DNA from: Candidatus Thorarchaeota archaeon
Lineage (GTDB): Archaea > Asgardarchaeota > Thorarchaeia > Thorarchaeales > Thorarchaeaceae
NCBI GenBank assembly: GCA_048882965.1
Contig: JBHLRC010000003.1
Span: 1-56,497, forward strand
DNA length: 56,497 nucleotides
Reading direction: 5' to 3'
In this document: piece by piece, positions 683 through 18,124 of the stretch
Layout of the letters: each line of letters starts with the position of its first letter
How positions within the stretch are numbered: the first letter of the stretch is position 1
Translations under genes and position numbers: made by a program
Notes under the pieces: generated by a model
Told to the model about the DNA's origin: nothing
The model's database searches: none
The model's input: the letters and a program-made list of their open reading frames with translations, nothing else

Positions 683-925
683 ATGGCTCGTAATTATCAA
701 CTTGAATCAGAAATCAGTGAATTAGAAAAGAGAGTTGAAATTCTTGAGTCGATATCCGCCCCTGCAACACATGATTTCACGAATGATACTCTCTCTTCAA
801 TTCTTAAACGAATGAATGCGGTGCAGTCACTTGTAGATCAGATAGAGATAGAAATTGACAAGCTGGAGATGAGAGTATCTGCCATTGAGCATGTTGATTT
901 TCGACTACGAACTAGCGGTCAGTAG
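683..925 (+). CDS. Small coiled-coil protein (80 aa)
   Basis: AGGTG SD before ATG; heptad pattern (LESEISELEKRVEILE; IEIEIDKLEMRVSAIE); co-oriented with upstream gene. Confidence 0.7.
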   Translation: MARNYQLESEISELEKRVEILESISAPATHDFTNDTLSSILKRMNAVQSLVDQIEIEIDKLEMRVSAIEHVDFRLRTSGQ

Positions 926-3563
926 TCGACTGAGTTAGGCTATCTATTAGGTCCAAGAAATATCCTGAAAACAGTGGTGAGGAAAATGCTTCCACAGGCA
1001 GGACTCTGGAATTCAATCCCTTCATTAGTTTCAAGTTGTTTTTCATTTTCTCATTTTTTCCCAATGTCAGAATCTCGAGTCTGCACCTGTCATGATCTGC
1101 GATTGCTCTAAGAAACGAGAGATGTTCTTCATCATAGTTGCCTACACTATTGCTGAGAACAATAGCTATCGTTGGTCTATCTGAACCGAAGTCTTCCAGA
1201 TATTCAGCAATTGCTCTATACACCCCAGCCATATTTTCATGTCCATCAACATCATCCAAAGTATCAATTACTGAGTAGATTAGCGAGATTAGAACTTCAT
1301 CTGATTGCAGGTCCTGAAAGAACTCTACATAGGGTTGAACCTCTTTACCCCTCTGGATCGAAAACTTCTCTGGAGTTTCGCCAAATGTCACAAGTGCTAG
1401 TTTCCCTTCTGTCTGATTGTATAGTAATGCGTTTACGATGGTAAGAACAGAGAGAGCGGCAATCTGTGAACGGGAGGAAGTTTTGTTTAATGCATCAAGA
1501 AATGGACCCAGCTCTGGTACTTTACTTTTTAAAGGACTCAGTTGCCTACGAGCTGCATGTAGCGTTTTCAACGAAACATCCTTCGTCTTCATTTTCATCC
1601 CTTTTGAAATGCATAATATGATGTTGAATTCATTGAAAGCTTGCTGTGGTCTAAAGTATGTTTTTTCATCAGTCAATCTACCAACCTTTCCTGAGAGAAG
1701 TTGAGGCTCCGAGGACTTGAAACATAAACTGACTTCCTTTCCATCATTTCCTACACTCAATTGAGAATCATGTCCAATTAGAATTCCATCGATAGTGCTT
1801 CGTATGTCTTTCTCGTGAAGATGAATAAATGAGGATAATTCTGCATTTTCGAGTTTTTGAGGTGCTCCGTATGCAAGTACAGTCTTCGTCATATCTACAA
1901 TCTCATCTTCATACTTGACAAGATTTACTACAGATGAACTGCTAAAGCCAAAGAGCATCGCATCTACTTCTGAAACTACTATAGACCTCTCTCCGCACCT
2001 AGAATGTCGCTGTGCTTGACCTGCAGCCCATCTTCCAGAGTTAGAATCAAGGGCAAGTATGAAATCTCCCGATGCAACTTCAAGAGCAGTCATATCATCA
2101 TCACACATGAAGAAAACTCCTCTGTCCGACTTTGCTACCTCCACACTGAAGTGAAGCGCAGATAGGATCTCATGCGGATTGGCAACTTGAAGACAATTTA
2201 GGAGTGCTTGAGCAAAACGGGTCAGATGAGCTGGGGAACCGTATATCGGTCCTTCCAATTTTGCATTTGCACGAACTAGGGTGTCTAGAAGAACACCATC
2301 TCGTTGAACAAGACTCTCTGAAAATGCCTTTTTCCATCCAGATATTATCACTGCACCATTTTTTTCCAGCAGTACTGAAAGACAAGTGGCTTTCACTGCT
2401 GTTGGACCTTTCAATGACAAAATCGCGCTATCGAGATGGACCTTTCCTCCATCGTTATCAACCATATAATCTAAAGACACAATTCCCTGAATCTTACGTG
2501 CTTCAAGAAGCTGAAGAATGCGTGCAAGTTCATTCATTGCAGCTTTTCCAAGGCTTTCCTCCGCCATTACAGACGAATTATTCTCTTCATACGATAAGAA
2601 TGGTGGTCGAGGTGGAAGAATAGATAGCATATTTCCACCAAGCACTCTCTGAATCTCTTCTGGTGAAGCAGCCAAATTCTTACTCAATAGATAGCTGAAA
2701 ACTTCAGACACACTATCTCCAAATTGTGTTTCAGGATACGAAGAGCCAAATATGACTCGCCTTGACCAATTGATGTCACTCTGATTCTTTCTCATATGCC
2801 GGATTAGCGAAGATAGAGATGAAATTGTTGCCCCCGCTGTCAGGACTTTACTGCCAGGAACATCAAGGAGCCGAGTGATTTCCTTACCCCACTCCTTGTG
2901 GTTCTTAACATTCAAGATCAGATTAGGGGTGATTAGTCCTGCTTGTTTGAGAAGGACAAGCCACTCAAGAAGCGAATCTAGTTCTGATGGTGGTCCCATC
3001 TCAACAAAGACAGGTTTCCCTGTTTTGATGTATTCAAGCAAATCAGTCCTATTAGCGCCTTTCAAAATAATGTTCAAATCTTCAGCTCTTAAGACGCATC
3101 CCCAACCAGGTTCGGTTCTCCGATCAAACCTCATATCTTGGAGATGATAGAGTCTAGGACCATATGGCGGAAGGGTTGCCCATCTAAATATGGACTCTGC
3201 ATTTGCTTTTTGTTGAAGCATAGGTAATGTTGTATCACCTAAATTGATGATTGGCTTTACAACCAGATAATCTGCAATCCAACTTTGTTGCACCGATGAT
3301 GATGAACCATGAACGAATTCCCCTAGCAGCTTTGGTTTTTTGAGATAGTCATAAACTCTCCTTGGTAAATACTTGAATGCTCCAGGATACTGCGATGAAA
3401 AATCGTGAAGTTGACTTTCAACCATGTTGTAGTATGCCCATACTCTTTCCGGATCAAATGTTCGAATATCAGTACCCGCCCGGACAATACCAAGATGAAT
3501 GGAACTATCGACGACAATAAAGCGGTGAATCTCATTTGCTTCAGTGTCCTCAACAACAATCAT
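912..3563 (-). CDS. Catalytically degenerate fusion protein: pseudo-amidohydrolase + Cdc48-N-like domain + degenerate vWA; paralogue of 3711..5219 plus 5289..6578
   Basis: Colinear matches to both neighbours, e.g. RVIFGSSY...SYLLS...IQRVLGGNMLS vs NILFGTDF...LYLLS...AQRVLAGNALS; FNIILCISKGMKMKTKDV vs FNAVLCIDTSGSMKTTDV; GKEVQPYVEF vs SGEVQPFVEC. Metal and MIDAS ligands are replaced. Confidence 0.85.
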   Translation of the reverse strand: MIVVEDTEANEIHRFIVVDSSIHLGIVRAGTDIRTFDPERVWAYYNMVESQLHDFSSQYPGAFKYLPRRVYDYLKKPKLLGEFVHGSSSSVQQSWIADYLVVKPIINLGDTTLPMLQQKANAESIFRWATLPPYGPRLYHLQDMRFDRRTEPGWGCVLRAEDLNIILKGANRTDLLEYIKTGKPVFVEMGPPSELDSLLEWLVLLKQAGLITPNLILNVKNHKEWGKEITRLLDVPGSKVLTAGATISSLSSLIRHMRKNQSDINWSRRVIFGSSYPETQFGDSVSEVFSYLLSKNLAASPEEIQRVLGGNMLSILPPRPPFLSYEENNSSVMAEESLGKAAMNELARILQLLEARKIQGIVSLDYMVDNDGGKVHLDSAILSLKGPTAVKATCLSVLLEKNGAVIISGWKKAFSESLVQRDGVLLDTLVRANAKLEGPIYGSPAHLTRFAQALLNCLQVANPHEILSALHFSVEVAKSDRGVFFMCDDDMTALEVASGDFILALDSNSGRWAAGQAQRHSRCGERSIVVSEVDAMLFGFSSSSVVNLVKYEDEIVDMTKTVLAYGAPQKLENAELSSFIHLHEKDIRSTIDGILIGHDSQLSVGNDGKEVSLCFKSSEPQLLSGKVGRLTDEKTYFRPQQAFNEFNIILCISKGMKMKTKDVSLKTLHAARRQLSPLKSKVPELGPFLDALNKTSSRSQIAALSVLTIVNALLYNQTEGKLALVTFGETPEKFSIQRGKEVQPYVEFFQDLQSDEVLISLIYSVIDTLDDVDGHENMAGVYRAIAEYLEDFGSDRPTIAIVLSNSVGNYDEEHLSFLRAIADHDRCRLEILTLGKNEKMKNNLKLMKGLNSRVLPVEAFSSPLFSGYFLDLIDSLTQSTTDR

Positions 3564-3710
3564 TCCATGCGACTCCAGATTTATCTATCTTCAAATCAAC
3601 AGAAGCCGATATATGCATAGTGCCGATTTCTATCAGAGTATAAGTTGTTAATTACGCAATGATTTATCTCCTATGTGGAAGTATCGTTACTTTGGAGGAA
3701 CTGAGCACCC

Positions 3711-5219
3711 ATGCTCGTTATCCGAGCTCTTGAGAGTCAACCAAATAATGGAATAAGTAAAGGTGATGAATTCAGACTCTATATATTGGATGCTCACCAT
3801 CACATGGGTCGTGAGAAGAGTCATACGAATACACCTCTAGGAGCGTATGAATTTTATCAACAACTCTGGTTTGAGATTCAAAAGAAAACCAAAGTGCTAC
3901 TTGAAAATGACACTCTGTTATTTGAACCCGTACGTGTAGAAGCACCACCTTTAGCAAGAGCGATTATCAAGAATAAGAAGAGCTGGGCCAGACTTGACCA
4001 TGGTTGGCTTGTTGATAGAACCTTTGTCTTCCCATACACAGACGACTACTCCACTCCATCCTCAAAAGATGAACCTTCATTCAAAGTTTCAAATGACAAA
4101 ATTGCGTCATGGACAAGTAGAGCCCCTCATTCTACTAGATTAATCGGATTCGCACGTGTCAACCCTCTAGATGGATCCTACAAGGGAAACCTTCTTGCTG
4201 TAAAAGAACTTGAACGTGCCGTTTTGGCTCATGGTCTTAGAGGACTAAAACTACACCCTCTCGCTCAACTCTTTGTGGATGAGATTGATAGGAATGAACC
4301 AAGGGAAGTCGTGAAACGAGCTGGAGAGCTTGGTATCCCTGTAATTTTTGACACTCGAAATATGCGTACAGTTGTGAGAATAAAACGACTAGTAGATTCA
4401 ATGAGGAATGATCCTGATTGTGGAGCTGCATTGAAGGGTCTGAGGGTAATTCTTGCGCATTGTGGAATGTCTCCCGGCGACTCTCGACTTTATGAAGCAT
4501 TGAAGGACCCTCTGATATATGGTGAAACATCCACACTTCATGATAGGGATGTCCCTGTTCTTTTCGAGTCTGCATGTGACCGACTAAGTTCTACAAATCA
4601 GGAATGGTCTGAGAATATTCTCTTTGGAACTGATTTCAGTTTCCTATCAGTCCAAGCAATGGATATCATTTTGTATTTACTCTCAAGGGACTTTCCAGGT
4701 ACTTTAGCTGATGCCCAGCGTGTTCTTGCAGGAAATGCGCTATCACTTGTTCATATTCCCTTTAGAACTTCAAGAGGGTCATCCGGACCACCTAAGGAAT
4801 TAATCTGCAAAGATGAGTCATTAGAAACTCAACGCGGAGTTGAACGTTTTGTAATCAAGCTCATAACAAACGGCACATGGGATTTAGAGTCATTGGATTT
4901 TATGATTCCCCCAATTGGAACTTGGCCTGAACCAGAGAGTATTGCTAGTGGTGGGTCCAATGGAATACATATGGATTCGTACGTATTGGCATTGACATCA
5001 AAGGAAACTAATAGTGAACAACATTTGTGGATACGAAGACGACCTGATGATTATTTGAGTTGTACTCTTTTGCCGACACAAGGAATGATTAGATTGGAAA
5101 CCTTGGAAAATGCATCACAAAAGGTAGGGCAGGTTCTATTGAACTCTCTATCTGACCATTCAGAAACCTTTCAATCAGATGACAAGTTTACATCACGCGT
5201 TGCTGAGCTTTTTGCTTGA
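3711..5219 (+). CDS. Metal-dependent amidohydrolase (TIM barrel, Amidohydro_2-like) with ~150-aa C-terminal extension
   Basis: DAHHH, GLRGLKLHP, VILAHCG and ILFGTDF motifs; GGAGGA SD upstream. Confidence 0.9.
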   Translation: MLVIRALESQPNNGISKGDEFRLYILDAHHHMGREKSHTNTPLGAYEFYQQLWFEIQKKTKVLLENDTLLFEPVRVEAPPLARAIIKNKKSWARLDHGWLVDRTFVFPYTDDYSTPSSKDEPSFKVSNDKIASWTSRAPHSTRLIGFARVNPLDGSYKGNLLAVKELERAVLAHGLRGLKLHPLAQLFVDEIDRNEPREVVKRAGELGIPVIFDTRNMRTVVRIKRLVDSMRNDPDCGAALKGLRVILAHCGMSPGDSRLYEALKDPLIYGETSTLHDRDVPVLFESACDRLSSTNQEWSENILFGTDFSFLSVQAMDIILYLLSRDFPGTLADAQRVLAGNALSLVHIPFRTSRGSSGPPKELICKDESLETQRGVERFVIKLITNGTWDLESLDFMIPPIGTWPEPESIASGGSNGIHMDSYVLALTSKETNSEQHLWIRRRPDDYLSCTLLPTQGMIRLETLENASQKVGQVLLNSLSDHSETFQSDDKFTSRVAELFA

Positions 5220-5288
5220 CGCTGACTCAAAATTCTTTATAACATTACAATTGGAGAATCTCCTATACGACTAGAGGAGGTAAATGCC

Positions 5289-6578
5289 ATCACCAAAAAA
5301 CTGACGCTGGAGATAATAGATGGCGGAGACCTACGAGGCTTCGCTAATGTGCATCCTAAAGTAGCTAAGAAGCTAGATGCTGACATAGGGTCTATTCTCA
5401 TTTTTGAAGATCCACAAAGCAGTTTTTGGGGCGCGGCTGAGATTAGAATGAACAATGAAACGGCGGAAGACAAGATTCTGATTGATACACTAGTTCTTGA
5501 AGCCTCACTACTTATGGAAGGAGATCAGGTCGAAGTCGCACTTTATGATGAAGACATGCTTGCTCTGGAATATGTTGAATTTGGTCTCAAACCCTTGTCT
5601 GAGGATGCTAACACCGAAGACCTAGTTACAAGAGCTGCTGAACGAGTAAAATCCTTGGAGAATATAATCGGTGGTCGTCTTGTTTACCCTGGTATGTCTT
5701 TCAATTGGCCTGAACTAGATGTAAAGGTGGAAATCATTAACACAAAACCAGAACTTGCAGGAAAGCGTTTTGCTAAATTAGCTTTTGAAGCGCTTCGTGC
5801 TCGAACTGGTTACCAGTTCAAGACAGTGGGTATTGCATCACCCTTCAATGCTGTTCTTTGCATTGACACCAGTGGGTCAATGAAGACCACAGATGTCCCA
5901 GTTCAGGATATCGCTCATGCTCGAGAAGGTCTAAAAGATTTGGCGGGTGATAGCCCGGAAGTGCATGCATTCCTGAATCGTTTTGAGGAGGGTAAGAATG
6001 TTAGTCGGGCTGAGGCAGCTGCGATGGCTGTCCTTCTATACCTAGCTGAAAAGGTCGGGCGAGGGTATGGTGAGAAGGTTGGAGTGATCACTTTCGAGAA
6101 AGAAGTTAGTGAGATGACCTTCTTAAATTCTGATTCTGGTGAAGTTCAACCCTTTGTTGAATGTACTGGAAGAGAGAAGGCGCTTGGGCTTCAGATTATC
6201 AGTACACATGTTGTAGACAAGGTGGAAGAAGGTGGTACACTAACTGACATGGGCACAGCTCTTACCAAAGCGCATGAAATCATGGAGGAGTTTGGAGACC
6301 CTGATAAACCGACGATGTTGATTATGCTGACAGATGGAATGACAACTTCCGGACCACCCCCACTTAAAGTATTGAAGGAACGATTCACAGATCGCAGTAG
6401 ACTTGTTATCTATTGCATTGGTTTGGGTGAACGTAGCGAAATTGATGAGGAACTGATGCTAGCAATCGCTCAATATGGTAATGGTAGTTATCGTCATGTC
6501 GATAATATGAGGGACTTACTAGAATGGTATGGTAAATTAGCTGGTGAGTTTGCAGTTGTTATCCGAGGCTCTGAGTGA
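5289..6578 (+). CDS. Cdc48/p97 N-domain-like + vWA (intact MIDAS) protein, no ATPase domain
   Basis: N-terminus KKLTLEIIDGGDLRGFANVHPKVAKKLDADIGSILIF resembles the Cdc48 double-psi barrel. vWA MIDAS DTSGS...TDMG...LTDG. The ORF track starts at GTG 5349, but the frame and similarity extend to about 5289 behind GAGGAGG (5274-5280), so the start is uncertain. Confidence 0.8.
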   Translation: MTKKLTLEIIDGGDLRGFANVHPKVAKKLDADIGSILIFEDPQSSFWGAAEIRMNNETAEDKILIDTLVLEASLLMEGDQVEVALYDEDMLALEYVEFGLKPLSEDANTEDLVTRAAERVKSLENIIGGRLVYPGMSFNWPELDVKVEIINTKPELAGKRFAKLAFEALRARTGYQFKTVGIASPFNAVLCIDTSGSMKTTDVPVQDIAHAREGLKDLAGDSPEVHAFLNRFEEGKNVSRAEAAAMAVLLYLAEKVGRGYGEKVGVITFEKEVSEMTFLNSDSGEVQPFVECTGREKALGLQIISTHVVDKVEEGGTLTDMGTALTKAHEIMEEFGDPDKPTMLIMLTDGMTTSGPPPLKVLKERFTDRSRLVIYCIGLGERSEIDEELMLAIAQYGNGSYRHVDNMRDLLEWYGKLAGEFAVVIRGSE

Positions 6579-6583
6579 AAAAT

Positions 6584-7732
6584 TCAATCGCGCGGCTCAA
6601 GAGCTTGTGTCAATCCCTTGAGTGTTTCCATATCCATCTCTTGAATCTGGTCCTCTGGGATTCCTTCAAGCATCACATCTGGTATATTAATCAGGAGTTC
6701 TGCTTTCTCCTGACCGAACTTGTCTACCAATTCTTTCATTCGCGGTTCAGTATCTATCTCCTCAGGTTCTGCTTCAGCCTTTTCTGTCTCAGGTTCACCC
6801 TCCGAAGTGGACGAGAGAAGTGCTTCAAGTTCCTCCACACTAAGAGTGGATAAGGTTTCATCACCAACCTCTTTCCTCACTTCTTCAGGAAGCTTCTCGA
6901 TTAACTCATCTTGTGCGGTTGGTTTCTTTTTCTTTTTGACTTTCTTTACCTTACGCACTTTAACGGCCTTTTTCTTCTTAGGCTTCTCAGGTACTGCCAC
7001 TTTGAGTTTCTGCACAAGTTCCCTAGCAGATGCTGGAGTCAAGCGTCTAACATCTTCAGGTGGAAGTGTTTCACGCAATTCTTCCGGCAGCTCACTGAGA
7101 ATAGCATCAACCTCTTCCGAAACTCCTTCAACCTTTGGAGCGCTAATACTCGCAGCTGCATCTTCCGATAGTAAAATTGGAGCACCTTCTAGTTCTTCTA
7201 CAAGAGATGTCACATCAATTTCAATGTCAAAATTTTGGCTTCGCCAATTATTATAACGGTCAATTGCAGATGCCTTCATTTTGATGGCTGAAAGGAATTT
7301 ATTGATATCTTCATCTGCCATCTCGGGGAAATCATCAATTAATTTCTCAATATTCTCTTGTGAAATTCGTGCCCAGATAGGTCCGTTTAGGAGTTTGGAA
7401 AGCCCTGCAGCACAATGCGAACGGACCCAAGTGTTATCATCTTGAAGTCCTTTGAGCAAATCGGGGACTGTTCTTGGCTGATGATAAAATGCAAGTGCTT
7501 GAGCTGCAGCGATTCGAACATCTGGAACCTCATCAGACATCGCTTTGACAACATCTGTGACAATTGTTGGATCCGCTAGGTCTACAGCTGCAATTAATGC
7601 TCTCTCTCTAACGATATCAGAGGGGTCTGTAAACGCGCTGATCAGTGCTTTGCGCTCTGATTTTTGATCTCTTGCAAGGCGCCCAACCTCATCTGTTTCG
7701 AATTCCAACAAAAGACTCCTTGTCTTTGCCAA
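6584..7732 (-). CDS. HEAT/PBS-lyase repeat protein with Lys-rich linker and acidic helical C-terminus
   Basis: Repeats DPSDIVRERAL, DEVPDVRIAAAQAL, DDNTWVRSHCAAGL; KKKKAVKVRKVKKVKKKKK stretch; TTG start after GGAGG. Confidence 0.85.
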   Translation of the reverse strand: MAKTRSLLLEFETDEVGRLARDQKSERKALISAFTDPSDIVRERALIAAVDLADPTIVTDVVKAMSDEVPDVRIAAAQALAFYHQPRTVPDLLKGLQDDNTWVRSHCAAGLSKLLNGPIWARISQENIEKLIDDFPEMADEDINKFLSAIKMKASAIDRYNNWRSQNFDIEIDVTSLVEELEGAPILLSEDAAASISAPKVEGVSEEVDAILSELPEELRETLPPEDVRRLTPASARELVQKLKVAVPEKPKKKKAVKVRKVKKVKKKKKPTAQDELIEKLPEEVRKEVGDETLSTLSVEELEALLSSTSEGEPETEKAEAEPEEIDTEPRMKELVDKFGQEKAELLINIPDVMLEGIPEDQIQEMDMETLKGLTQALEPRD

Positions 7733-8740: not shown

Positions 8741-9433
8741 CTATTGGTCTAAACTTGGTATATCATCAGGTCTTCTGACATGCATTGTGATTCCAGTTAT
8801 GTGGTCAATCACAACTTGTTCGCCTGCTTTGATTGGGGGTCCGTCAGTTCTCGCCCACCAAATCTCTGCACCAGTCTTAACCTTACCCTTTGGATTAAGA
8901 TCTGTTACTGCATGAATATCTGCATATTTGAACTGAGAGTAAGTTGGCCACTTGTCGTAGTTCCTCAGGAATGCAAAATATAGAATCATCAGGCAAAATA
9001 TCGAACCTGCCATGAAGTAGACTGTTAAGCGTCTAGTTTCATCAATAAACAGTGAGAGTACTATTGCTGCACCATAAATTGGGAATAGCTTCAACGAAAC
9101 TTTGGCATCAATAAAACCACCCTCAACGAAACTACTACCTCCTGTAAACATAGTGAACATTAGATACATCACTGCGAAGATGACAATAAGCATCCAGTCT
9201 TGGAAGGTAAACCCTTGAAGCCACACTTGAAATACGAATAGAATTAATACAAGTGGGACAGTGACCTGCGCCATTGCCTTGCCTGTTGCAGGTTCGAGTG
9301 TCAACACAAGAAGCGTGAGGATAACACCCAGTAGAATTAGACCAACAAATGGATCGATTAAAAGATATGGCATTATCATACTCAATGCTGTGAACATGAG
9401 CATGACAACCAAGATTTTTATCCATGCATCCAT
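8741..9433 (-). CDS. NfeD-family membrane protein (C-terminal OB fold)
   Basis: Several TMs followed by GKVKTGAEIWWART...GEQVVIDHITGITMHV; directly downstream of the SPFH gene. Confidence 0.85.
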   Translation of the reverse strand: MDAWIKILVVMLMFTALSMIMPYLLIDPFVGLILLGVILTLLVLTLEPATGKAMAQVTVPLVLILFVFQVWLQGFTFQDWMLIVIFAVMYLMFTMFTGGSSFVEGGFIDAKVSLKLFPIYGAAIVLSLFIDETRRLTVYFMAGSIFCLMILYFAFLRNYDKWPTYSQFKYADIHAVTDLNPKGKVKTGAEIWWARTDGPPIKAGEQVVIDHITGITMHVRRPDDIPSLDQ

Positions 9434-9464
9434 TCTCTTTCCTCCTACTCAGAGTCCTATTCGA

Positions 9465-10328
9465 CTACTCTTCTTTTCCTTTGTTTTTCGGTACTCTTAA
9501 TCCACCCGTTCCTGCCGTAAGCGCGACAGATGCTCCTGTTGCCAATCCAACTTCTGGAAGGCTTGCAGGAATCATAATGATCAGGTTGGCGTTCTTTGAT
9601 ATCTCCTGCATGATGTTCCATTGCCGAAGTGCAAAACCAACATTTGACTCCTCATAGATACGAGCTGCTTTCAGCATGTTCTCTGAAGCTTCAAGTTCAG
9701 CTGTAGCTAATGTTACACGAGCTCTCCGTTCTCTCTCTGCTTGAGCCTCTCGACTCATAGCATCTTGAAGTGCTGAGGGAATCACGACATCACGAATTTC
9801 GACACTGGTTACTTTTACACCCCAGTGTTCGGTTTTCTCGTCAATAAGTTCCTGTAGATGTCCTGCAATCTGATCTCTCTCTGATAGAAGCTGGTCTAGT
9901 GTGACCTTTCCTGTTGTTTCCCTTAGTGTAGTCTGAGCAGCGAGCTCTACAGCAACTGTGTATCGTTCTACACTAAGAATTGCCTTCTCGACATCAATGA
10001 CTCTGAAGTACATAACAGCGTCTACGACTACCGGGACGTTGTCCTTTGTTAATGAACGTTCAGTCTTGAAGGCATAGGTAAGTAGCCTAAGTGAAACCTT
10101 CATAGCAACCTTATCAAGGATGGGTGTTACCCAGATGACTCCGGGTCCTCTTATGTGTTTGAATTTACCCAATCTGAGGATTGCAACACGTTCCCATTCC
10201 TTTAGGACCTTTATTCCACTCGCGACAAACATCAGAATGAAAAACAGGATCACTATCAGGAACATCATCGTTAAATATGGATCCAATATCTGCAATTCTT
10301 TCTTGCTCCTTCCTTCCGTACACACCAT
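9465..10328 (-). CDS. SPFH/stomatin (band 7) protein; true start probably TTG near 10295
   Basis: EWERVAILRLG, TKDNVPVVVDAV, AQTTLR, AQAERERRA motifs. Confidence 0.95.
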   Translation of the reverse strand: MVCTEGRSKKELQILDPYLTMMFLIVILFFILMFVASGIKVLKEWERVAILRLGKFKHIRGPGVIWVTPILDKVAMKVSLRLLTYAFKTERSLTKDNVPVVVDAVMYFRVIDVEKAILSVERYTVAVELAAQTTLRETTGKVTLDQLLSERDQIAGHLQELIDEKTEHWGVKVTSVEIRDVVIPSALQDAMSREAQAERERRARVTLATAELEASENMLKAARIYEESNVGFALRQWNIMQEISKNANLIIMIPASLPEVGLATGASVALTAGTGGLRVPKNKGKEE

Positions 10329-14019: not shown

Positions 14020-17000
14020 CTAGTACACTGTAAATTGCCGCTTTACCATCTCAAGCGCTCTTGCAGGAAGAGGTCTGCCAGAATCCAGAACAATAGCATC
14101 AACATAATATCCCGTAACAACATCGATAGGCGGAGTCACCCAATTAATTCTGACAATGTTTGTTTTTGCTTCAGGGTCTGGTAATGGTACTTCAAATTCT
14201 TTGATAACATCTCGTCTTGACATGATCCGAACGCATAGGGTCAAGTCACCAATTTTGTCACCAATGCTTTCGATTTTGGTGATGATTTCTATTGTTGATA
14301 GTCTTGCCACAAGTCCGGGTATCTCATCTCCTGTTTCATTTCTGATTGAGAATTCTATCTTGAAAAGTGGTGACTCTATTGCCTTAATCTTGAACCTTTC
14401 TTTCTTCTCATAAGACTTCTTTCCACACCTTAGTGTTGCTCGTAGATGAGCTGTGCTCATCTCTGCACTCAAAGGGACTCTGACTGGTATTGGAAACAAT
14501 CTCTCTTCTTTTGGCTGAAGGCTAATTTCCTGCGATAGAAGGTCTCGGTTTCCACCAACTGATTCTAATTCAACAGTGAGAATACAGCTACTGTTTTCCT
14601 CTAAATTGCTAGTGAGTTGCACAGTTGGCTGTATCAATTCATCTGGAGCCGCAAAATTAGGTAGTCCGATAAATTCAATCTGTGCGATATCCATGGCGGG
14701 CCCTCCTAACAAGCTTATCTCTGTTGATCTTTGATCCACTTCAACTCCTGCATAGCTTAGTGTAGCTACTAGTTTGATTGATTGATGATCTGAATCAACT
14801 CGTGGCGCTGGAATAGTCACGGGCCCAAAAGCTACCGAGAGATTCTTACTTTGTTTTACAGGCTGACTAAGCACATGGTGTTCATCCTCATCGGGATATA
14901 CAAAAGACATATTGAGAATTGCAGGGTCACCCGTTTCAGTGTTCCTTCTTATTCTCAACCATCCAGAAATTTTACCTCCTATATGTGAGTGTTGAGGAAC
15001 TCTGAGTGAATCAATATTGACCAGAGTGGTAACCTGTTCGATTCTTAATCTATCTGACTCAGATGATGCAATTTCCTTTCCACCATCTTTCAAAATTGCT
15101 TTCAATATTCCTACCCTATCAGCTGGACTCTCCACTGATATAGCTGGTATCTTCCAGTGAAAGCTTACTATACCTTGAGAAATCTCTTCCTTAAGGAATT
15201 CCTCTATGAGATGTGTTCTCCCAGAATCACTCTTGAATTCCAGTACAACCCTTGAGTTTGGGCTAACTTTCTTTCCAAGATTCTTGACCACTATCTCCCC
15301 TGAAACCAGATCTCCAAGTTTATAGCTACTCTTCAGATCTGCGTTGATTATCACCTGAGGCCCTCTCTTGACAAAACCAACATAGAACGGTTTTGATACT
15401 GCTTCAGAAATTTCTGTACCATCTTGATTTAGAAGTTGTAATTGAAGTATGCATCTTTCTACTCCGCTCGCAGCATCTGATGGGACAAGGATGGGAAGGA
15501 ATTTTGTCTGGTCGATTTTCGTAGCTTCACTACTCTCAACCTGAATTGTGTCTCCAGAGGAAACAAGAACTTTCTCAATTCCAGGGGCGATAACACTGAT
15601 TTGACAATTAACCTTGGTCTGTGTTGGATAGTTGGTTTCTATTTGTCCATTGAAGAGGACAGGAGTTTTCCCATCTGCAAATTGAGTTGTCGTTCCCGGT
15701 TGTATTGATGCTTTCATCCAGTACATATTGATAGTACTGGTTAAGCTTATGACTCTCCCCACGAATCCAACTTCTGTAATAATATTGTAGGCTGTGATAT
15801 TTTTCCTTGTTTCAAAGGACACTTCCAATACATGAATTTCTCCATTCTGGATAGTAGGAATAGTCAGTACCTTGTTTTCTACAGGATTCCGCTCAGAATC
15901 TTCTATTGTGTATGAGATTGAGATATCCTCAAGTTGTCGACCTGTGGAATTCTTCACTAATATATTAAAATGAACATTTTGTCCAGCAAACACTCTCTCA
16001 ACATCAGTGACAATTTCTGGTTCGAGTCCTTTCCACCAGCATAACCATGTGGGTAAATGTGGTGTTCCTTCTATTGGATCGTACAACCAATTGGTACTAC
16101 ATTCTCTAGTAACCTCTGCGAGCCTCTTCATCAACACGACCATGTTGTTGTCAGATTTTGCGTATACATCTAGTTGAAAGTCTGCTCCTGTTGTCCTTGA
16201 CTCAACAAACTCGCTACCAAATACCGACACAAGTATTGCTTGCATGAATGGATTCTCGATTATGTTTAACTCTTCAAGCTCTTCTCTAATTAGGTACAAC
16301 ATAGAAACAACAGCGTCTCCAAGAAAACGGTTCTTTTTGTTTTCATCGACAAGTCCTTCATCGGTTATCTGAAAGTTGTAGATTCGGAGATAATCTGAGC
16401 CCTTTCCTCCTGCACCTGGTCTAAAAGGTCCCCACAAACCTGCTGATAGTGCTGACTCCCTATTTGCTGCCAGCGTCTTGGGACTTACATCTGGAATGGT
16501 TTCTCCTCTCTCAAGCATTCTTTTTGCCTTTAGTGCTAATGCTTGAAGTAAAAGCGCAAGACCCATTCTTCGTGGAATTGAAAGTTGTGTATCGAACACT
16601 CGAATCTCAATTGTTCCATAATCTGTGAATGGATACATATCCACCATTCGCGAATAGCTACGATTGACATGGCGCGCAAAAGCTTCTTTGTCAGTCCCAC
16701 GCAGGTATGGTATCAACTCAAACTCATTATTTGGTCCCATCTGTGTGGTGTTCCTAAATAATCGAATGGATCTCTTACATCTTGGTGCTCGCAATCTCCC
16801 CTCATCAGAGATTGAAACCTCGTCACTTGGCTTTTTATTTTCAAACGGTGAGTTGACTGAGAGTGCAATTAGATGAGGTAGGAAATTCCGTATCATGTTG
16901 TAGACTGCTAACTTTGTTTTTTCATCAGTATTTGGACTTAGTATGTGATGGTGTTCTCCAAAGGATAAGTTTCTCAGATACTCTTGGGTGGGATTAAGCC

Positions 17001-17454
17001 CTGTCGAGATCAGGATAGCTTTGGAATCCACTGGAAGGGAATCCTGAGAGATCGCAATTAATGTCTGAATCCACCACGCGAGTTCTTCAAGTGTTGTACA
17101 AGGTGGAGTAGCGATTTCAAGTATCCATGTAAGGCTTGTTACATTTGGATCGTGTCCAAGTAGTGTATACTCCTTATGTACTCCATCTGGATTCTCATAC
17201 TCTACAGTAATCCTTGAACCTCTCTCTCCTTCCTCTGTCTGTGCTGACTGTTTGTATTTTTGCCTCACAGATTCTACTGATGAAGATCGAATCTTCTTAT
17301 CAAGCAGACTCTTTGCATTTGACACGATTCGATCAAACACCTCAAGTATGTCTTCTCCACGAATCCAGGTACCATCTTTTCGGATAACTTGGAGCTCCAC
17401 CTCTATCCCATGCGGGAATGGTAGCTGCATTTCCGAGTTTTCCGTTGAACTCAT
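14020..17454 (-). CDS. GCS2/YbdK-type carboxylate-amine ligase domain fused to ~650 aa of predicted Ig-like beta-sandwich domains
   Basis: HGIEVELQVI, LEIATPPC, GEHHHI, ALSVNSPF and YGTIEIRVFDTQ motifs. The C-terminal half shows alternating beta-strand patterns. Start ATG 17454 follows AGGTG. Confidence 0.85.
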   Translation of the reverse strand: MSSTENSEMQLPFPHGIEVELQVIRKDGTWIRGEDILEVFDRIVSNAKSLLDKKIRSSSVESVRQKYKQSAQTEEGERGSRITVEYENPDGVHKEYTLLGHDPNVTSLTWILEIATPPCTTLEELAWWIQTLIAISQDSLPVDSKAILISTGLNPTQEYLRNLSFGEHHHILSPNTDEKTKLAVYNMIRNFLPHLIALSVNSPFENKKPSDEVSISDEGRLRAPRCKRSIRLFRNTTQMGPNNEFELIPYLRGTDKEAFARHVNRSYSRMVDMYPFTDYGTIEIRVFDTQLSIPRRMGLALLLQALALKAKRMLERGETIPDVSPKTLAANRESALSAGLWGPFRPGAGGKGSDYLRIYNFQITDEGLVDENKKNRFLGDAVVSMLYLIREELEELNIIENPFMQAILVSVFGSEFVESRTTGADFQLDVYAKSDNNMVVLMKRLAEVTRECSTNWLYDPIEGTPHLPTWLCWWKGLEPEIVTDVERVFAGQNVHFNILVKNSTGRQLEDISISYTIEDSERNPVENKVLTIPTIQNGEIHVLEVSFETRKNITAYNIITEVGFVGRVISLTSTINMYWMKASIQPGTTTQFADGKTPVLFNGQIETNYPTQTKVNCQISVIAPGIEKVLVSSGDTIQVESSEATKIDQTKFLPILVPSDAASGVERCILQLQLLNQDGTEISEAVSKPFYVGFVKRGPQVIINADLKSSYKLGDLVSGEIVVKNLGKKVSPNSRVVLEFKSDSGRTHLIEEFLKEEISQGIVSFHWKIPAISVESPADRVGILKAILKDGGKEIASSESDRLRIEQVTTLVNIDSLRVPQHSHIGGKISGWLRIRRNTETGDPAILNMSFVYPDEDEHHVLSQPVKQSKNLSVAFGPVTIPAPRVDSDHQSIKLVATLSYAGVEVDQRSTEISLLGGPAMDIAQIEFIGLPNFAAPDELIQPTVQLTSNLEENSSCILTVELESVGGNRDLLSQEISLQPKEERLFPIPVRVPLSAEMSTAHLRATLRCGKKSYEKKERFKIKAIESPLFKIEFSIRNETGDEIPGLVARLSTIEIITKIESIGDKIGDLTLCVRIMSRRDVIKEFEVPLPDPEAKTNIVRINWVTPPIDVVTGYYVDAIVLDSGRPLPARALEMVKRQFTVY

Positions 17455-17464
17455 ATTCTCACAC

Positions 17465-18124
17465 CTAGAAAGAAGCAAGCATACTCAGGATTTGAATAAC
17501 CAGATCCTTATTCTCTACCACTTGACGAGAGAGAGTCAGTTCAGACACCAACAGAGTCTTTCTATCCTCAAATGACTTCGTAATCTCGTATGTTAAAGGA
17601 CCACCACCAAATTCACCTTCATCTACTACTACCTTTAGACCTATTCTCTCCAACTCTGCTTCCAATTTCTTTGTTCTAATTGATTCACCCAACTTGTATC
17701 TACTTCCTCTAATGACAATTCTCTCTTTCTCAAGCGGTGGAGCGAGTTGCGACCATCTTAAATTAATCACATACTCTAATTGTCTCTTCTGGTCCTCAGC
17801 ATGAATCATGTTTACTATACTTTCTATTGTCAAGTTGGACTCACTTCGATCTCCTGCTTTGATCAGAGATGGAATATTTCTCCCGCGCCCCCTCTCTTGT
17901 AGTATTCTCTGCAAAGGATCGCCTTGAATAAGACCTGAGAGAACGCATACTAGACCTTTTGATTCTCCTTGAACGAATTCCCCACTTGAGGAGAAATCAC
18001 TTACTTTCATCTCACGTTCAATGGACTGGAGTGCAGTATTCAAATTCAGAAGTACGTCTAGTAAGTTATGTAGAACATTCTCTGTGTGTTCAAGTTCTTT
18101 TAGGAGATTTCTGGACTTACTCAT
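17465..18124 (-). CDS. Hypothetical protein, possibly degenerate N-formylglutamate amidohydrolase (Zn-carboxypeptidase fold)
   Basis: C-terminal EFGGGPLTYEI...LLVSELTLSRQV resembles the FGase F-x-GG-x-IT...IQIEIS motif; ends 10 nt before the ligase start. Confidence 0.45.
   Translation of the reverse strand: MSKSRNLLKELEHTENVLHNLLDVLLNLNTALQSIEREMKVSDFSSSGEFVQGESKGLVCVLSGLIQGDPLQRILQERGRGRNIPSLIKAGDRSESNLTIESIVNMIHAEDQKRQLEYVINLRWSQLAPPLEKERIVIRGSRYKLGESIRTKKLEAELERIGLKVVVDEGEFGGGPLTYEITKSFEDRKTLLVSELTLSRQVVENKDLVIQILSMLASF

Follow-up and report, generated by a model that had tools for sequence, protein, structure and literature searches.

The window analysed here, a stretch of 56,497 nucleotides from a Candidatus Thorarchaeota archaeon (contig JBHLRC010000003.1, assembly GCA_048882965.1), contains a divergent locus in which the minus-strand gene of an 883-residue protein, F (912..3563), faces two plus-strand genes across a 147-bp intergenic region. 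The first of these, A (3711..5219, 502 aa), encodes an Amidohydro_2 (Pfam PF04909) enzyme with a full set of metal ligands and a C-terminal extension of about 150 aa. The second, V (5289..6578, 429 aa when read from ATC 5289), encodes a double-psi beta-barrel (DPBB) resembling the N-terminal barrel of Cdc48, followed by a von Willebrand factor A (vWA) domain with an intact metal-ion-dependent adhesion site (MIDAS). Sequence comparisons indicated that F is a fused copy of both neighbours with neither metal site. We put at somewhat better than even the chance that F is an ancient fused pseudoenzyme, kept by selection as a non-catalytic binder or scaffold and either autonomous or facultatively coupled to A and V.

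A first-pass annotation of this DNA had claimed that F aligns end to end with the two plus-strand genes, and both this claim and the gene positions it gave were borne out. BLASTP matched F 494-847 to V 9-370 (E 4e-17, 22% identity) and F 258-384 to A 291-428 (E 7e-7). Family alignments were built from 20 orthologous loci of the same genus, nine loci from Asgard genomes further afield, and homologues taken from databases. Profile-profile comparison with hhalign aligned F 1-404 to A 1-448 with an E-value of 8.5e-31 and F 469-845 to V 4-392 with an E-value of 2.5e-36, and a greedy hhalign extension aligned A 1-501 to F 1-474. F is therefore collinear with A and then V, essentially end to end, and the peptide pairs aligned in the first-pass annotation all recur in these BLASTP and profile alignments. 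By hhalign against the A family, residues 1-404 (2352..3563, minus strand) form an amidohydrolase-like half without metal ligands. Residues 405-468 (2160..2351, minus strand) form a conserved connector (dN/dS 0-0.29), which the greedy extension aligned weakly to the C-terminal tail of A. Residues 469-850 (1014..2159, minus strand) match the V family by hhalign and form a DPBB-like and vWA-like half without the MIDAS. These alignments support the view that F is a fused paralogue of A and V.

This relationship is hidden from family models. No Pfam or NCBIfam family was assigned to F, a Pfam scan extended to E 1 gave nothing, and the N-terminal half fails the Amidohydro_2 model, its homology being visible only through the A family profile. 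Comparison of the F profile with the PDB returned nothing beyond a designed double-psi barrel at E 0.043, and the ESM Atlas has an entry for F with neither a model nor a usable feature match. We found 113 homologues of F, with identities of 31-81% and nearly all of about 885 aa.

The residues that coordinate metal in A and V are conserved within their own families and lost in F. Residues D27, H29, H31, K180, H182, H250 and D308 were invariant among 32 A-family sequences; among 44 V-family sequences, the MIDAS residues D193, S195 and D349 were invariant and S197 and T319 were at least 90% conserved. When mapped through the profile alignments, H29 is replaced in F by S, H31 by Q or H, H250 by A or V and D308 by S or A, and the strand carrying K180 and H182 corresponds to a gap. 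At the MIDAS, D193 is replaced across F rows by S, S195 by G, S197 by K or D, T319 by E and D349 by N or G, the five positions reading S, G, K, E and N in the F of the window. We then defined as fused all proteins of at least 700 aa that match the hidden Markov models of both families (n = 162, some locus and database duplicates included). None of the 162 carries the full A ligand set, compared with 55 of 63 stand-alone A proteins, and none the full MIDAS set, compared with 93 of 113 stand-alone V proteins. Gaps, fragments or partial rows account for most of the other stand-alone sequences, and substitutions occur in a few V rows. The fused proteins of Frey- and Jordarchaeia retain the HxH motif without the other three ligands.

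Other conserved positions survive. D19, D98, R145, P184, W266 and N311 of the A part and M658, D662 and R698 of the V part each persist in 116-130 of the 130 F rows; for D19, D98, R145, W266 and N311 the range is 122-130. The loss is thus specific to metal coordination. The motif replacements listed in the first-pass annotation recurred for DAHHH to DSSIH, LAHCG to LNVKN, GTDF to GSSY and DTSGS to SKGMK; the pairing of LKLH with CVLR did not, since F is gapped over the K180/H182 strand, and no conserved histidine is present there either way.

Selection was measured as dN/dS (omega), calculated by the Nei-Gojobori method. In the four pairs with dS below 0.4, F had an omega of 0.109-0.139, A of 0.084-0.124 and V of 0.005-0.024, the value for V reaching 0.027 overall. 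Each of seven segments of F gave an omega of 0-0.29. F is present in 24/24 genomes of the genus with an intact open reading frame (ORF) of about 880 aa, and the layout of F facing A and V is identical in 20/20 genus loci that were fetched. Identity to the copy of the window within the genus is 54-80% for F, 62-79% for A and 88-95% for V; across the genus V is far more conserved than its partners F and A.

These results bear on the idea that F is a decaying duplicate, or that its similarity to A and V arose by chance. Such a reading could draw on the missing family annotation and on the weak pairwise similarity to A. It is contradicted by the two profile E-values, by ORFs of about 880 aa that are intact throughout the genus and in three other families, and by the low omega of every segment, and we consider it extremely improbable. 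The first-pass annotation had named a lineage-unique copy with dN/dS near 1 as the outcome that would speak for decay; what was found is a protein under purifying selection in four families. Collectively, the absence of complete ligand sets, the purifying selection and the profile-level homology support the description of F as a pseudoenzyme, that is, an enzyme homologue without catalytic residues, as had been proposed for the dead copy.

The F family appears to be old and confined to Asgard archaea. A search of 1.84 billion representative sequences with the F profile returned 154 proteins at E-values of at most 1e-3, and the named members of the clusters that were looked up are all Asgard (Thor-, Frey-/Jord-, Asgardarchaeia, Sigyn- or Promethearchaeota). 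In a survey of 301 Asgard genomes from 30 families, full-length F was found in four families: f1, f2 (1/1 genomes), f7 (5/5) and f19 (6/6). Profile matches occur in 70/76 genomes of f1 and are nearly all full-length F, and six further families gave weaker, split-type matches only. One internal TAA reported for the F match of f19 was rejected as a sign of disruption, because genome G063 carries an intact ORF of 893 aa. Quick maximum likelihood trees, unrooted and with long F branches, were built for each half. A single branch parts fused from stand-alone rows both in the V-part tree (19 F, 38 V) and in the A-part tree (28 F, 39 A), with a Shimodaira-Hasegawa-like approximate likelihood ratio (SH-aLRT) support of 100 in each. 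The agreement of the two half-trees supports a single old origin of F. One duplication of the A and V gene pair would have given the single-chain copy, which would then have lost every metal-coordinating residue of both parents while keeping the fold-defining and several polar positions.

Natural deletions separate F from the live genes. Three f1 genomes from three genera, G041 (98% complete), G042 (95%) and G080 (97%), carry F without A or V; the sole matches to the A and V families in these genomes lie inside F. Synteny with the window is preserved on their contigs. G041 and G042 have empty slots for A, V and L, a ligase-like gene described below, and a gene for a HEAT-repeat protein lies immediately upstream of F in the same orientation. 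G080 has empty slots for A and V and keeps a shortened, diverged L. The ligands are missing from the F copies of all three genomes as well, and these copies belong to the most divergent ones (28-34% identity). Loss of A is thus accompanied by loss of V, L has disappeared from two of the genomes and is degenerate in the remaining one, and F is able to persist without them. The reverse is found in families f6, f9, f22, f24, f27 and f28, where A, V and L occur and the F profile detected no F.

The first-pass annotation had offered another model, in which the dead copy acts as scaffold or regulator within an active/inactive hetero-complex. F would then be a subunit that binds its live paralogues and so controls A and V, one conceivable form being a pseudo-dimer of A and F barrels. 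Several observations agree with it. In the genus, 21 aligned intergenic regions contain conserved promoter-like elements placed back to back. The putative promoter of F is a 27-nt element, CAGAAGCCGATATATGCATAGTGCCGA, at 3600..3626 (at least 80% consensus; its TATA-like core lies some 50 nt from where F starts), and that of A, with its predicted ribosome site, spans 3656..3698 on the plus strand (a TATA-like GCAAT-N-TTTATC and a GGAGG before the A start). The same divergent layout of F and A is seen in the sister family (L034). An A-V-L module is located some 5-14 kb from F in G030 and G063; in G101 neither of the two modules shares a contig with F. F also retains the non-ligand residues that it shares with A and V, and solved Amidohydro_2 enzymes such as ACMSD work as dimers. 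Against it stand the three near-complete genomes that keep F with no A or V detected, and the six families with A, V and L in which the F profile found no F. We regard control of A and V through a hetero-complex as a minority possibility, with perhaps a quarter of the weight. The sequence evidence argues against F as an obligate partner of A and V; since F survives where no A or V was found, its role would be autonomous or at most facultatively coupled.

A further alternative is that F has been neo-functionalised and catalyses another, metal-independent reaction through polar residues of its own, for example those of the SSYPETQxGDSVSE and LPRRAYDYLKKP motifs. The N-terminal half indeed has invariant or near-invariant charged and aromatic residues that are absent from A (E5, D6, R68, R69, Y71, Y73, E278, D283 and E287), and selection on F is as strong as on A. 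F matches no enzyme family, however, and its two halves lost their sites in parallel. A shift to binding therefore fits the parallel loss better than new chemistry does, and we consider neo-functionalisation improbable. Under the interpretation that we favour, F most likely binds the same class of ligand as its parents without processing it, as a non-catalytic binder or scaffold.

The fusion also informs on its parents. A and V are adjacent or near each other in ten of ten Asgard families examined. This adjacency or proximity, the joint loss in three genomes and the fusion in F support the idea that A and V act together, so that the Rosetta-stone link drawn in the first-pass annotation now has evidence that is independent of the fusion itself. 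A matches Amidohydro_2 with 48.6 bits (cut-off 26.4), its profile finds 3ij6 as best PDB match (E 5.2e-6), and most of its solved Amidohydro_2 relatives are decarboxylases. The A gene ends with two in-frame TGA codons (TGA CGC TGA, 5217-5225), and V runs on in the same frame. One tool reported an open frame of 957 aa because V continues the frame of A past this tandem TGA; an A-V read-through fusion was rejected, as the two stops part the genes.

V matches Pfam VWA_2 with 40 bits (cut-off 27). Pfam CDC48_N matches 10/44 V relatives (best 1e-8), and the V of the window itself had no CDC48_N match at E-values of up to 0.01. With the V profile, DPBB designs were found in the PDB at 7.5e-6 and residues 43-117 of Cdc48 N at 1.1e-4. 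For the second, beta-clam subdomain, no CDC48_2 match was obtained in any of the 44 V members, and no AAA+ ATPase is attached or adjacent to V. The earlier label Cdc48N thus holds at family level for the double-psi barrel half; it found no match in the V of the window or for the beta-clam half.

V probably starts at a non-canonical AUC codon at 5289, which gives the protein of 429 aa. The first canonical start, GTG 5349, lies 20 codons further downstream and would give 409 aa (5349..6578). In 21/21 genus loci an in-frame ATC is placed exactly 8 nt after a GGAGG and opens a conserved peptide (ITKK...), and in 21/21 a TTTATAA stands 52-57 nt before the ATC. In the window these elements form a putative promoter and ribosome site on the plus strand at 5236..5280 (TTTATAA 5236-5242, GGAGG 5276-5280), just past the tandem TGA of A. 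No canonical in-frame start exists upstream in 13/21 loci, and in 7/21 the first canonical start is 20-75 codons downstream, within the conserved barrel. The constant spacing of ATC and GGAGG and the scarcity of canonical alternatives are the grounds for this assignment, and the non-canonical start apparently explains why database gene calls give V lengths that vary between 354 and 463 aa. A programmed -1 frameshift at the V start (out-of-frame ATG 5284, then CCA AAA AAC TGA) was rejected; ATG 5284 and the slippery run are missing from most of the 20 orthologous loci.

Other forms of V were also seen. A third, orphan V paralogue without adjoining A or L is present in three genomes (L038, G030:C2:442870-444099; G063:C1:2444214-2445449; G101:C19:6280-7512), and the gene after it in G030 is of the radical-SAM type, with an HMPTM-type zinc ribbon. 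Long forms of V, 685-973 aa in length (L047, L048, L049; cluster P0338/P0396), are found in other Asgard families, among them proteins that carry the label Sigynarchaeota. They have an N-terminal extension of 250-500 aa and an intact MIDAS, and one has an extra CDC48_N-like stretch.

A third gene of the system, which the first-pass annotation did not mention, is found in the window as well, roughly 7.4 kb past V. At its N-terminus L (14020..17478, minus strand, 1152 aa) carries a GCS2/YbdK-like carboxylate-amine ligase domain, and its long C-terminal part is beta-sandwich-like. It matches Pfam GCS2 with 24.8 bits (cut-off 21) over 47 residues only, and PDB profiles of YbdK type at 7.5e-4 (1tt4) and 2.6e-3 (1r8g). 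A passage of PMC7278568 states that some Asgard proteins match GshA families. The C-terminal part comprises about 650 aa of repeated beta-sandwich-like sequence with weak MG2 and LacZ_4 matches, and it is a separate gene in some families (L047, L048). Inspection of the L sequence revealed no obvious signal peptide or membrane segment. By our reading, the ligase motifs of L look intact. The L of G080 (L054:2014-4140, 708 aa, 32% identical) may be degenerating.

L adjoins A and V in six other families. It is convergent right after V in G029, G040 (one copy seen), G030, G101 and G063 (two copies in each of the last three); the order is A-L-V in G267 and V-x-L-A in G249, and L is directly upstream of A in G164 and next to A in G180. 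Across the surveyed genomes, family tallies of matches to the A, V or F profiles and of matches to L agree in 30/30 families: both are present in 11 and neither in 19, the latter including tallies of 0/28, 0/19 and 0/11. Within f1, genera g17 and g20 also have neither kind of match. This agreement is a pattern and not a statistic, because related genomes are not independent. We read A, V and L as one putative three-gene module of Asgard archaea. None of the PADLOC defence families matched F, A, V or L, and the HEAT protein gave only a weak HEAT-ARM match.

Two kinds of gene recur beside these loci. The HEAT-repeat protein with a charged tail (6584..7732, minus strand; Pfam HEAT_2, 54 bits) is a constant neighbour: its gene adjoins V in 20/20 genus loci and in G025 (family f2), and is directly upstream of F in G041, G042 and G080. 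NfeD-like and SPFH/Band-7 genes (8741..10328, minus strand; the name NfeD is our own reading) lie 5-6 kb from F in the window, and an SPFH/Band-7 gene stands divergently beside F in 4/4 loci examined in families f7 and f19 (L035, L040, L043, L044). The ORF that follows F in family f7 was considered as a HEAT homologue and rejected (hhalign probability 0.3). Just downstream of F, G063 encodes a protein that joins a zf-AN1 zinc finger to a Peptidase_M50 (site-2 protease) domain (L043:9331-10311). Two coiled-coil genes are convergent to F throughout the genus (2-925 in the window), and the A-V operon of G025 begins with a coiled-coil gene of 155 aa (L034:5264-5731).

In the mechanism that we propose, L would make an amide bond in an ATP-dependent manner, and A would hydrolyse this bond or otherwise process the product. 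V would be the adaptor, its MIDAS and barrel binding a carboxylate-bearing ligand, probably a protein or peptide. The constant neighbours, HEAT in f1 and f2 and SPFH/Band-7 in f7 and f19, may hint at where F works, which is the weakest step of the scheme. A bolder version, which we hold to be unlikely, is that A, V and L constitute an Asgard-specific amide writer/eraser/reader system acting on proteins or peptides. L would attach a carboxylate to an amine, A would remove it and V would recognise the substrate through its MIDAS. F would be a fused 'reader-only' protein that binds marked substrate and leaves the mark in place, in association with SPFH membrane scaffolds and the HEAT protein.

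Several points weigh against a selected, non-catalytic and largely autonomous F. Constraint on F is possibly relaxed in G041, G042 and G080, whose copies are 28-34% identical. Incompleteness of these metagenome-assembled genomes could conceivably still account for the missing A and V, although the contigs show empty slots. The trees are unrooted, so that an order in which the fused protein came first and was split later is possible; they were made by a quick method and have long F branches. The link between HEAT and F is positional only, because genus g17, where F is absent, has the HEAT gene too. Finally, the reaction type of A, the ligand of V and the ligase activity of L are all inferred.

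Pseudoenzymes and Rosetta-stone fusions are known ideas, and the case of F is unusually clean. A single fused paralogue has lost two active sites that are unrelated to each other; the correspondence of fused with dead and of split with live copies is perfect; and the fused family is old and Asgard-wide, with natural deletions that part the dead copy from the live genes. The A-V-L module is an undescribed Asgard system. In the literature searched we found no description of a DPBB-vWA protein with an amidohydrolase and a ligase, nor of F; supplementary tables of Asgard gene-cluster papers may list these families. If the module does modify proteins, it would bear on tagging and adaptor machinery in the lineage leading to eukaryotes. 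Should the writer/eraser/reader version be true, the archaea closest to eukaryotes would possess a kind of tagging not seen before, a functional parallel to pupylation or to ubiquitin-like systems. With Asgard strains now amenable to culture, the module gives concrete targets for experiments.

Compared with known systems, A resembles the Amidohydro_2 enzymes (PDB 3ij6 and 3nur, gamma-resorcylate decarboxylase, LigW, ACMSD) in scoring above the Pfam cut-off and in keeping HxH...H...H...D, and the N-terminal half of F is homologous to A. Unlike these enzymes, A is distant from every solved member (its best match being that to 3ij6), has a C-terminal extension of 150 aa and an invariant K180, and F lacks the ligands and any Pfam model match. 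V shares the DxSxS...T...D motif with vWA domains that carry a MIDAS, such as integrin I domains and the archaeal VWA2 proteins 5a8j and 4rck, and a DPBB-like N-terminus with Cdc48/VAT-type barrels. It differs in having neither an AAA+ ATPase nor a detected beta-clam, and the vWA half of F differs in having no MIDAS.

The pupylation enzymes PafA and Dop, the closest analogy for the module, are writer and eraser, an amide ligase and a de-amidase of the glutamine-synthetase/GCS fold. The likeness lies in the genomic coupling of the ligase-fold protein L to A, predicted to process amides, and to V, a putative protein-binding adaptor; it is one of analogy and not of membership. L matches GCS2/YbdK and not the Pup-ligase family, and the candidate eraser is a TIM-barrel amidohydrolase rather than a ligase paralogue. 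No tag gene was identified for the A-V-L module.

For F, the closest analogy, again without any claim of membership, comes from Mg-chelatase, in which ChlD/BchD joins a degenerate ChlI ATPase copy to a vWA domain and serves as scaffold for its active paralogue. The two proteins differ in fold, AAA+ in ChlD and TIM barrel in F; the vWA domain of ChlD keeps its MIDAS, whereas both halves of F are dead, and F survives without live paralogues. ChlD nevertheless shares with F the arrangement of an inactive enzyme paralogue fused to a vWA domain and encoded beside the live enzyme, and may provide a model for how F works.

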